From Candidatus Pampinifervens sinense (GTDB lineage Bacteria > Aquificota > Aquificia > Aquificales > Aquificaceae): a stretch of 64,000 nucleotides of DNA. Within the stretch, counting starts at the first letter, position 1. The number at the start of each line of letters is the position of its first letter. The notes beneath the pieces were generated by a model. It was not told where the DNA came from, ran no database searches, and saw only the letters and a list, made by a program, of their open reading frames with translations. Location of the stretch: the NCBI GenBank assembly GCA_037927135.1, contig JAXSPP010000005.1, forward strand, positions 32,001 through 96,000, given 5' to 3'. Below are positions 43,169 to 44,762 of this stretch, in pieces. A program made the translations under genes and the position numbers.

Positions 43169-43197
43169 ATAATAATTCGCAATTTAATCTTTGTCAA
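43169..43197 (-). promoter_or_regulatory. Sigma70 promoter of leuA
   Basis: TTGACA(43197-43192)-N17-TATTAT; abuts the left direct repeat of the tnpB element. Confidence 0.65.
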
Positions 43198-43206
43198 GGC
43201 CTTTCT
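43197..43206 (+). repeat. Left copy of 10-bp direct repeat AGGCCTTTCT (putative target-site duplication)
   Basis: Identical to 44753-44762; directly abuts the left inverted repeat. Confidence 0.8.
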
Positions 43207-44752
43207 GAGGGTGTTCCCAAAATCCACTTTACTTACCGGTTATGTTAAAATACCAAAAGATGATAACCATAAGCGCTAAGCTTTTATTCTCAAGCTATCA
43301 AGATAAGGAAAAGGTCTTAGACCTCATGAGAATATGGTCCTCGGCTATGAGATATGCTTACAAAAGACTTCTGGAAGGCATGGAAATAAACACTTTAAGA
43401 AAGTTAATCCAAAATGTGTTTGGACTAAACTCAAGATATTCACACTCAGCCATTGTTAAAGCCCAAGCCTTGATGAAAGTAAGAGAAGAGAAAGGAGAAA
43501 GCTTAAGGAAGGTTATATTTGGTGGAAGGGATATTTTCAGAAAACTGCAAAAGAGACATATAAACGGGAAAGACTATCAAAGGTTAAAAATACAGTTCCA
43601 AGAAAAGAGAAAAGGCAATCTCTATTCCATAGGACAAAAACACTCAAAAGGAAATCAAAACACAAGTATAGAGGTAAAAGAAGATGGAGCTTATCTTAGG
43701 ATAAACACAGGAGAAAGGCAATATGTATATGCCTTGATAAGTGCGGGGGATAGGATAGAGAAGATTAAAGAGATAGCCTTTTCTGGGAAGGCTTACTCTG
43801 TAGAACTAAAGCTAAGAGATAGCAATGTGTATGCTTACTTTACCATAGAGGAAGAATATCCACAGATAGAGATTACAAAAGCATATGGAGTAATAGGTAT
43901 AGACTTAAACGCCTATCCAAACCACATAGCTTGGGCAGAGACGGATGAGTATGGAAATCTCCTAAGCTATGGTGAAATAGCTATGCCAGAACTGGGAAGT
44001 GGAAATGGCAATAAAAGAGATTATTACACATGGATATACGCACATAAGGTTATAAGCTTAGCTAAAGAAAAGGGAAAGGCTATAGTGATAGAAAAGCTAA
44101 AGCTAACCAAAAACAAAAGAGGGGACTACTCTGGGAGAAAGGTAAGGAGAATACAGCATAACTTTGCCTATAGGAAGCTATTAGAAAGGATAAAGCTACT
44201 TGCAAAAAGAAACTGTATAGAGGTGATAGAAGTAAATCCAGCCTATACATCCATCGTAGGCATGTTAAAGTATGCACCACAATACATGGTAAGTAAGGAT
44301 ATAGCTTCTGCCTATGTGATAGCAAGAAGGGGCTTAGGACTAAAGGAAAAGGTGCCAAAGAATTATATGGAGCTTATAAGAAGGCTAAGTGTAGAAGGAC
44401 TGATGGAACTGAAAGAGTATGTAAAAGAGAAAGTAAAGAATGCCTATTTAAAAGCCAAGCATATTAAAGAGATAGAAGCTTTGATAAAGGTTTTAAGCCT
44501 TGGGAGTGAGCCATGGAAGGTATCTGAGCCTCTGGAAGGAACAAGCTTAGGTATCCGATTTAATCCATGGCGAGTTCTCAAGGTAGTGGTGCTAACCGCA
44601 CTCTCTCCTGAGAGGATCCTTAGAGACCTCTCTGTCCTGAAAGGGAAACTCTTTCAGGGCTTGTGGGGAGACCCGATATGGGCGCGAGCTCCTACTGCAG
44701 GGGGTGGGGGCGTAGTCTGTGTGAAAACACAGGCTATTTTTGAAACACCCTG
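43207..44752 (+). mobile_element. Non-autonomous 1546-bp tnpB-only element with terminal inverted repeats and a 10-bp target-site duplication
   Basis: Left end GAGGGTGTTCCCAAAAT vs reverse complement of right end CAGGGTGTTTCAAAAAT (14/17); flanking perfect direct repeat; no transposase inside; A-rich coding composition. Confidence 0.75.
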
Positions 44753-44753
44753 A
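43260..44753 (+). CDS. tnpB: TnpB/Cas12f-like RNA-guided nuclease (IS200/IS605 OrfB-related)
   Basis: RuvC-I GIDLN, RuvC-II IVIEKL, EVNPAYTS and RuvC-III KDIASAYVIARRG; probable start ATG 43260 after extended -10 TGtTAAAAT (ORF track start 43242). Confidence 0.88.
   Translation: MITISAKLLFSSYQDKEKVLDLMRIWSSAMRYAYKRLLEGMEINTLRKLIQNVFGLNSRYSHSAIVKAQALMKVREEKGESLRKVIFGGRDIFRKLQKRHINGKDYQRLKIQFQEKRKGNLYSIGQKHSKGNQNTSIEVKEDGAYLRINTGERQYVYALISAGDRIEKIKEIAFSGKAYSVELKLRDSNVYAYFTIEEEYPQIEITKAYGVIGIDLNAYPNHIAWAETDEYGNLLSYGEIAMPELGSGNGNKRDYYTWIYAHKVISLAKEKGKAIVIEKLKLTKNKRGDYSGRKVRRIQHNFAYRKLLERIKLLAKRNCIEVIEVNPAYTSIVGMLKYAPQYMVSKDIASAYVIARRGLGLKEKVPKNYMELIRRLSVEGLMELKEYVKEKVKNAYLKAKHIKEIEALIKVLSLGSEPWKVSEPLEGTSLGIRFNPWRVLKVVVLTALSPERILRDLSVLKGKLFQGLWGDPIWARAPTAGGGGVVCVKTQAIFETP
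44502..44737 (+). ncRNA. Putative omega-RNA-like structured RNA overlapping the tnpB 3' end
   Basis: Consecutive hairpins at 44502-44579, 44610-44632, 44634-44660, 44660-44688, 44688-44711 and 44712-44737; GC-richer than the gene body. Confidence 0.55.
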
Positions 44754-44762
44754 GGCCTTTCT
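44753..44762 (+). repeat. Right copy of 10-bp direct repeat AGGCCTTTCT
   Basis: Identical to 43197-43206; abuts the right inverted repeat and overlaps the miaB stop codon. Confidence 0.8.

Follow-up and report, generated by a model that had tools for sequence, protein, structure and literature searches.

A tnpB-like gene of probable IS607-type descent between the terminal repeats of an IS5-like element family in Aquificota

TnpB is held to survive by restoring IS605 and IS607 elements after their scarless excision, and its presence in cut-and-paste elements of the DDE type lacks a settled rationale. Passages of Altae-Tran et al. 2023 (PMC10691335) describe DDE-transposase-associated branches of TnpB, all with inverted terminal repeats, as well as solo TnpBs that have the same ends and were probably mobilised in trans, and passages of a 2026 review (PMC13565253) name ISL2, IS630 and IS1031 as DDE partners, call the association rare and explain it only by conjecture. 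Here we describe a solo tnpB element at positions 43207-44752 of a 64,000-nucleotide stretch of Candidatus Pampinifervens sinense (the window, meaning the whole stretch analysed, to which our coordinates refer; G000 denotes the genome that carries it and G015 the complete genome of a congener). We consider it probable that an IS607-derived cassette of tnpB and its RNA came between the ends of an IS5-like element and was then spread in trans by a DDE transposase.

The element is 1546 bp long and lies between two copies of AGGCCTTTCT (43197-43206 and 44753-44762). Each copy abuts a 17-bp terminal inverted repeat (TIR), which reads GAGGGTGTTCCCAAAAT on the left (43207-43223, plus strand) and, as reverse complement, CAGGGTGTTTCAAAAAT on the right (44736-44752, minus strand), the two being identical at 14 of 17 positions; both occur on other copies, and the left one also on autonomous IS5-like elements. 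A first-pass annotation had proposed both the duplication and the imperfect repeats, and direct reading bears them out. The sole long open reading frame (ORF) within the element is tnpB-like (43242-44753, plus strand; 503 aa in its longest frame), and its end, like the right TIR, overlaps a predicted structured 3′ RNA region (44603-44752, plus strand) that resembles an omega RNA or right-end RNA (reRNA) scaffold. Of the contents listed in the first-pass annotation, the gene and the structured region stand, the latter through covariation, and the promoter is not confirmed: a consensus scan found none for tnpB on the plus strand, where only TGTTAAAAT at 43243-43251 was picked out by eye. The stop codon does straddle the end of the element as had been described (the first two bases of its TGA belong to the tip of the repeat and the A opens the right duplication), but this position means little in view of the loss of protein-level constraint over the last codons described below.

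As in the DDE-associated TnpBs in the passages of PMC10691335 mentioned above, tnpB lies within inverted terminal repeats and at most 250 bp from a transposon end; unlike those systems, the vehicle described here generates duplications of 9-10 bp and enters sites next to a -35-like TTGTCA, its cassette can be traced to IS607-type elements, and no transposase gene was found in the element or, so far as the searches below went, in the genome. Elements of the IS200/IS605 type have a Y1 HUH TnpA and subterminal hairpins, whereas the window element has no tnpA and carries TIRs and duplications instead. With IS607 elements, as represented by the multi-copy elements of Caldanaerobacter subterraneus, it shares a protein that is 59-63% identical, an N-terminal TIGR01765 region, a homologous 3′ RNA and the lack of a zinc finger, but it has neither tnpA nor the GG...ACCAGG ends, in place of which there are TIRs and duplications. 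Autonomous relatives from the IS5 family, near 1 kb in length, have the same kind of 17-bp TIR starting with GAG and duplications of 9-10 bp, but encode the DDE transposase that the window element lacks; the IS903 subgroup makes 9-bp duplications. Like miniature inverted-repeat transposable elements (MITEs), which are non-autonomous, have TIRs and target-site duplications and are mobilised in trans, the element has both hallmarks, but at 1546 bp it encodes a constrained protein. Fanzor1 in eukaryotic DDE transposons is likewise a TnpB-type nuclease within a transposon with TIRs and target-site duplications, and passages of PMC13565253 treat the duplication of Fanzors as part of the target-adjacent motif (TAM) or guide; those duplications are short and fixed (e.g. 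TA), whereas the one described here is a variable 9-10 bp and would lie inside the guide.

The window copy is one of many. G000 holds five further copies or remnants, namely a second full copy that is 89% identical and has no left repeat, two copies that have internal deletions but keep both repeats, a remnant of 100 nt from a right end and scraps of a sixth. The protein was matched in 10 of the 31 genomes of a draw of relatives (G000 included), with 13 matches and five intact frames in G015 and dozens of pieces in G005. When seven copies were compared, six had both ends and one had no left end; five of the six were flanked by duplications of 9-10 bp, all different (AGGCCTTTCT, AAATTTATC, AGAAGGTAGG, CCTTCCCCT and ATCACATAA), and the sixth had none. 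A larger set of 24 two-ended elements from G000 and two congeners comprised eight full-length copies, a 1265-bp MITE interrupted by another insertion sequence (IS) and 15 of 197-317 bp, the size range of the deletion derivatives (MITEs) of the tnpB element. Perfect flanking repeats of 9-10 bp were present in 8 of these 24 against none of 552 mismatched pairs of left and right flanks, and flanks at least 80% identical in 9 of 24 against 2 of 552. These comparisons indicate that flanking duplications exceed chance, and the eight perfect ones differ in sequence. The repeats of the tnpB copies follow the consensus GAGG[GC]TGT[TG][TC]CAAAAAT. Copies within G015 and G000 diverge by 7-13%, which suggests that the burst is old and that the window copy is probably stranded.

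Several arrangements among the copies deserve mention in their own right. Solo right ends and deleted derivatives that keep the structured RNA region occur outside the window at G000:C5:111509-111608 and G000:C5:120169-120371, and at many sites in G005, and a G000 remnant is joined directly to TTGTCAAGG, which fits a deletion between the duplication's AGGG and an internal AGGG. Elsewhere copies adjoin the ends of others in the order right end, 9-10 nt, left end (L031/L170, G015:C1:661354-662921; L189 and L192 in G005), which may reflect tandem arrangements or a tendency to insert next to ends already present.

The protein is a TnpB/Cas12f-fold protein that has no zinc finger and retains an intact D-E-D triad. 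Its homologues begin at Met7 of the 503-aa frame (43260), and in an alignment of 13 sequences conservation at the protein level stops near residue 476 (about 44669). Among NCBIfam models, the TnpB-related domain TIGR01766 (59.3 bits, cut-off 32) and TIGR01765 (63.6 bits, cut-off 47.25) were matched above their thresholds and NF040570 guided_TnpB below (48.4 bits, cut-off 100); the only Pfam match was Cas12f1-like_TNB, at 15.8 bits below its cut-off of 26.3, and among PDB sequences a profile search found nothing beyond a marginal match to Cas12f1 (E 0.037). D221, E284 and D353, the RuvC-like triad, are invariant across the 13 aligned homologues. A C4 zinc finger between RuvC-II and RuvC-III was absent from the sequence and from the 13-homologue alignment, with no cysteine pairs after NPAYTS; as the loss of the finger is known in some branches of TnpB, according to passages of PMC10691335, this does not exclude membership of that family. 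An AlphaFold model of moderate quality (mean predicted local distance difference test score, pLDDT, 67.9) gave 49 Foldseek matches at E <= 0.001; those listed were all Cas12, TnpB or Fanzor chains or RuvC, led by Cas12f (best E 1e-10), Cas12k, the TnpBs of ISDra2 and ISFba1, Fanzor2 and RuvC, with no transposase structure among them. Across seven diverged copies the ratio of nonsynonymous to synonymous substitution rates (dN/dS) was 0.12 over codons 1-425, the synonymous rate then fell to 0.127 over codons 426-470, and past codon 470 dN/dS rose to 0.74. This profile indicates that the protein is constrained, that the 3′ end of the gene is constrained at the nucleotide level and that the last ~27 codons are unconstrained as protein. 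The product is most likely still an RNA-guided nuclease.

The nucleotide-level constraint coincides with a predicted RNA. From an alignment of the last 150 nt of 26 copies, RNAalifold derived 35 consensus pairs in seven helices, with compensatory changes at 12 pairs; 97.4% of cells were paired, compared with 47.5-62.4% when the partners were slid by 1-3 columns, and none of 500 shuffles reached the observed covariation score. G-U pairs are numerous on the tnpB strand, which argues for an RNA of that strand rather than for DNA cruciforms. One helix, in which GGGG pairs with the tip of the right repeat, is invariant. No Rfam family was found for the 3′ region; the only match, to a snoRNA and below threshold, we took as chance. 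By its covariation, the last ~150 nt are predicted to form a structured RNA scaffold of the omega RNA or reRNA kind.

The origin of this cassette can be traced through its relatives, of which 1275 were found at E <= 0.001 among 8000 candidates scored. The best named ones, 56-63% identical, come from Thermoanaerobacter, Caldanaerobacter, Caldicellulosiruptor and other genera and bear the name "IS200/IS605 family accessory protein TnpB-related protein". At eight Caldanaerobacter loci the gene lies downstream of a serine-recombinase tnpA, with an internal deletion in this tnpA at three of them, and the elements start with GGAGGTCAAAACAGTTG... and end with ...CAGTTTGGGTAACCAGG without a duplication, which is the IS607 pattern. 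Among 28 loci of other organisms, the right end was of the IS607 type (...ACCAGG) at 26 and the C-terminal motif of the serine-recombinase tnpA lay upstream at 11, with TIRs only at two loci of a close Aquificota clade. The 3′ RNA region is homologous between TIR-bounded and IS607-type elements except for the last ~17 nt. In a tree of 20 rows, from which 14 of 24 locus rows had been dropped for a stop in the translated range, the clade of P0001-P0011, supported at 100/100, was embedded among IS607-type rows, and Aquifex rows of the IS607 type formed a clade outside it; the ends of the P0001-P0011 clade were read for its members other than P0002, P0003, P0005, P0006, P0008, P0010 and P0011. The phylogenetic placement suggested as a check in the first-pass annotation therefore sets the TIR-bounded clade within IS607-type diversity. 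Nearest relatives of the IS607 type without TIRs or duplications, together with a nested clade that has TIRs, indicate that the cassette changed its vehicle.

A different reading of the same relatives is that the element is still of the IS607 type and is moved in trans by a serine-recombinase TnpA, its TIRs being diverged TnpA sites and its flanking repeats having been made in some other way. The closest outside relatives are indeed IS607-type, and tnpA-tnpB units of this type do occur in Aquificota (the right half of locus L242, and the Aquifex loci). Serine recombinases, however, perform conservative strand exchange and do not leave variable duplications of 9-10 bp, which is established knowledge and is also stated in PMC6188088, whereas 8 of 24 copies have perfect duplications of differing sequence; moreover, the GG...ACCAGG ends have been replaced in the TIR clade. 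We regard such mobilisation as extremely improbable.

The ends of the element, in turn, point to a family of DDE elements. We scanned 178 Aquificota genomes for the repeat word and for transposase fragments, and found the word over-represented in several genera (forward/reverse matches: 56/61 in G005, 34/51 in G140, 18/23 in G060 and in G088, 18/20 in G063 and 12/12 in G015; controls 0-3). In G058, which has no TnpB match, the word occurs at many contig ends; one deletion derivative of 455 bp, which has the repeat GAGGCTGTTTGAAAAAT and still codes for the C-terminal third of a DDE transposase, is 8 nt away from TTGACA, and a contig-end copy lies 9 nt from TTGACA-17-TATAAA. Used as a query, this transposase fragment had matches in 40 of the 178 genomes. 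Autonomous ISs in other Aquificota are 934-1010 bp long, encode a DDE_Tnp_1 transposase of 278-323 aa and have 17-bp repeats and duplications of 9-10 bp, the repeats GAGGCTGTTCTAAAAAT, GAGGCTGTTTGAAAAAT and GAGCCTGTTCCAAAATT all bounding DDE_Tnp_1 elements. Thus the element at L240 (G088) has 934 bp, repeats GAGGCTGTTCTAAAAAT and GAGGCTGTTTTAAAAAT, the duplication GCGAAACAGT and a 278-aa ORF; that at L227 (G031) has 1010 bp, the duplication AATTATAGT followed by TGACA and a 323-aa ORF; that at L242 (G138) has 992 bp and the duplication TAAAACCTAT; and at L241 TTGTCA is followed by 10 nt and then the element end. The proteins of L240, L227 and L242 scored 47.8, 62.1 and 45.2 bits for Pfam DDE_Tnp_1 (cut-off 23). 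Their best NCBIfam match was IS5 NF033579, with 68-97 bits against a threshold of 140, so that the family placement is approximate, and models of IS4, IS1182, IS701 and IS982 were matched as well. The first-pass annotation had named ISAs1 as a candidate while noting that IS5/IS1182-type ends are similar; no ISAs1 model was listed for these proteins at E <= 0.1, and the partner is IS5-like rather than ISAs1. Where an autonomous element adjoins TTGTCA, it mostly does so with the end that follows its transposase gene, the counterpart of the left end of the tnpB element. The common repeats, duplication length and target preference indicate that the ends of the tnpB element belong to this IS5-like DDE family. 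In G088, the autonomous element and the TIR-bounded tnpB elements carry one identical 17-bp TIR word, the TnpB of the latter being more distant (41-44% identical to that of the window). Directly beside the IS5-like element of G138:C1 lies a unit of the IS607 type, with a MerR-like/serine-recombinase tnpA followed by a tnpB-like ORF (L242:1831-3299).

It could be argued that no such partner is needed and that the TnpB-like protein is itself the transposase of an autonomous element, its RuvC site, with RNase H fold and D-E-D residues, cutting and joining the repeats and TTGTCA acting as a TAM-like recognition sequence. The element holds no other gene, its ORF is under purifying selection in diverged copies, its many deletion derivatives imply past mobilisation in trans, and no matching DDE transposase was found in genomes rich in it, all of which this proposal would accommodate. 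The protein, however, is ~60% identical to TnpBs of IS607-type elements that have a serine recombinase of their own, which makes a new catalytic role unlikely; its best fold matches are all RNA-guided nucleases and none a transposase; and DDE_Tnp_1 elements without any TnpB have the same repeats, duplication length and motif, and so account for these. A transposase role of the protein is, in our view, very unlikely.

The capture of an IS607-derived cassette by IS5-like ends also accords with what the first-pass annotation had put forward, since a non-autonomous vehicle of the DDE type mobilised in trans is supported by the autonomous ISs with the same 17-bp repeat, duplications and target, and the placement of a tnpB cassette in foreign, MITE-like ends by the nearest relatives, which are IS607-type and have no TIRs. 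Several observations weigh against it. Flank identity is below 60%, with no recognisable duplication, in 14 of the 24 two-ended copies; the repeats of the autonomous elements differ from those of the window at 2-4 of 17 positions; where these tnpB elements abound most, no IS5-like transposase came to light, PF01609 having no match in G000 or the complete G015 and only two unrelated fragments in G005; the transposase fragment matched none of G000, G015, G005, G081 and G082; and in no genome examined do an autonomous element and the tnpB clade of the window occur together, co-residence being confined to the distant clade in G088. The DDE transposase with matching TIRs sought in the first-pass annotation has hence been found in other Aquificota genomes and not in G000. 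Recombination among copies plausibly explains those without duplications; in one metagenome contig the left flank of a G015 copy is linked to the right flank of a second one, although this contig may be chimeric or misassembled. Unassembled repeats in metagenome-assembled genomes could hide partner transposases.

Two candidates for a partner were rejected. A 282-aa transposase between such repeats in G015 proved to belong to a separate ~970-bp element with repeats of its own, ATACGCCGAGTGAGAAATT, that had inserted into a MITE, and the two DDE_Tnp_1 fragments of G005 lie outside repeat-bounded elements. The ~970-bp IS (L154:1396-2371; G015:C1:1260485-1261460), whose 282-aa ORF is weakly IS982-like (NF033520, E 1e-06, below cut-off), has 24 matches in G015, most of them full-length and 96-100% identical, and also occurs outside the window at the G000 contig ends C1, C2, C3, C4, C5, C6 and C9; of three copies read, two are flanked by target duplications of unusual length, 19 and 33 bp.

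A further possibility is that the solo tnpB elements decayed from a two-gene IS5-like element, with transposase and tnpB, through recent losses of the transposase, rather than having arisen by capture into bare ends. Published branches of DDE-associated TnpBs do hold both genes, alongside solo TnpBs with the same ends, as passages of PMC10691335 report. No copy with both genes was present, however, in 80 genome loci and 10 metagenome loci, or in the loci of G000, G015, G005, G060, G088 and G140; the 10 metagenome loci, searched for an autonomous version, were mostly the same insertions as in G015, and none had a second gene. Within the element the start codon follows the left repeat after only ~35 nt, and the RNA extends into the right repeat, with no remnant of a transposase gene. 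We therefore think decay from a two-gene ancestor unlikely and retain the capture of the cassette by IS5-like ends.

Repeats of this kind also enclose a second, more distant TnpB lineage of other genera (521-567 aa, 40-51% identical), at L218, L214 and L217 and in matches of G088 and G140, including a 1644-bp copy with a perfect 10-bp duplication, ATATGATCTT (L218:514-2157; G060:C3:230313-231956), and its gene is apparently opposite in orientation relative to the two end types. This suggests a second capture by the same vehicle.

The vehicle has a marked target preference. In tnpB elements the left end lies 9-11 nt past TTGTCA; of 24 elements, 9 had TGTCA at a distance of 8-19 nt ahead of the left end, compared with 0.4% of random genome windows, and 3 had it at the mirrored distance beyond the right end. 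An A occupied position -10 in 26 of the 34 left flanks and, in 25 of 36 cases, the base that directly follows the right end. At autonomous or derivative ends, TTGTCA or TTGACA lay 8-11 nt from one end in 6 of the 8 read. TGTCAA is the reverse complement of TTGACA, and in the window it is the -35 box of leuA, whose sigma-70-type promoter (43169-43197, minus strand) consists of TTGACA at 43197-43192, a 17-nt spacer and TATTAT, agreeing with the consensus at 11 of 12 positions. The box, which reads TGTCAA on the plus strand and so presents the target motif of the family, abuts the left duplication; the neighbouring genes are leuA (TIGR00973, 831.7 bits) and miaB (TIGR01574, 505.8 bits). Upstream of leuA, ...TTGTCA followed directly by AG is kept in all nine relatives compared, indicating that the box is host sequence.

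The leuA promoter of G015 bears an independent insertion (L058/L011, G015:C1:227596-229145) at exactly the base used in the window, just past TTGTCA, but oppositely oriented and with another duplication, AGGGGAAGG. The empty site predicted by the first-pass annotation was recovered for this sister insertion, in G006 with a single AGGGGAAGG; for the window insertion itself no relative was similar enough upstream of leuA to provide an exact empty site, junction lengths being comparable. By inserting 9-10 bp ahead of -35 boxes the vehicle seems to follow a safe-harbour strategy, and such insertions could also alter promoter activity. TnpB-driven selection was considered as the cause of the orientation bias, i.e. 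the left end beside TTGTCA, and set aside; since the autonomous elements mostly place the same end beside the motif, the vehicle itself accounts for the bias more simply.

The proposed course of events is as follows. A tnpB gene and its 3′ RNA, of IS607-type descent, would have been placed between the 17-bp TIRs of the Aquificota IS5-like family, and a DDE transposase supplied in trans would recognise these TIRs and make a staggered cut of 9-10 bp beside TTGTCA, the reverse complement of a -35 box, in this case that of leuA. Insertion of the element and repair of the gaps would then yield the duplication of AGGCCTTTCT, and the same family would also give rise to the deletion derivatives (MITEs) of 200-320 bp. 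The RNA may end at the right repeat and read into the flank, so that its guide, expected to start with AGGCCTTTCTAACAC..., would begin with the 10 duplicated bases and match the unoccupied site TTGTCA-AGGCCTTTCT-AACAC..., allowing retention of a homing type. If the RNA acts as an omega RNA, we infer by analogy that the right copy of AGGCCTTTCT supplies the first 10 nt of the guide. Neither G000 nor G015 yielded a matching transposase and the copies in G000 differ by about 12%, so that the window copy is now probably immobile.

This geometry predicts TTGTCA as the TAM and the duplication plus flank as the guide. That TTGTCA is in fact the TAM of the nuclease we regard as possible but doubtful. 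Equally tentative is the broader idea that the orientation of the cassette is not arbitrary, the target motif of the transposase, TTGTCA, having become the TAM and the duplication supplying the first bases of each guide. If it were true, every insertion would program TnpB against its own empty site, and in polyploid thermophiles chromosome copies still lacking the element would be converted as by a gene drive. The retention of a homing nuclease by a cut-and-paste element would then have a reason, as would the harmless position of nearly all copies just upstream of promoters.

The first-pass annotation called this an atypical association of TnpB and transposon, and uncommon it is, though the kind is already described in passages of PMC10691335. 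What is new lies in the details, namely the change from IS607 to IS5-like ends, a long duplication that would enter the guide and the targeting of a promoter box. By title and abstract we found no literature on the Aquificota family, on duplications of 9-10 bp with TnpB or on -35-box targeting, though the supplements of PMC10691335 may list the clade.

We believe that the Aquificota family offers a clean natural case for asking why TnpB is occasionally present in cut-and-paste DDE elements. The compact, zinc-finger-less proteins of these thermophiles may also hold some appeal for enzyme engineers. Above all, donor lineage (IS607-type), recipient vehicle (IS5-like ends), autonomous partners and MITE offspring can be compared side by side within this family.

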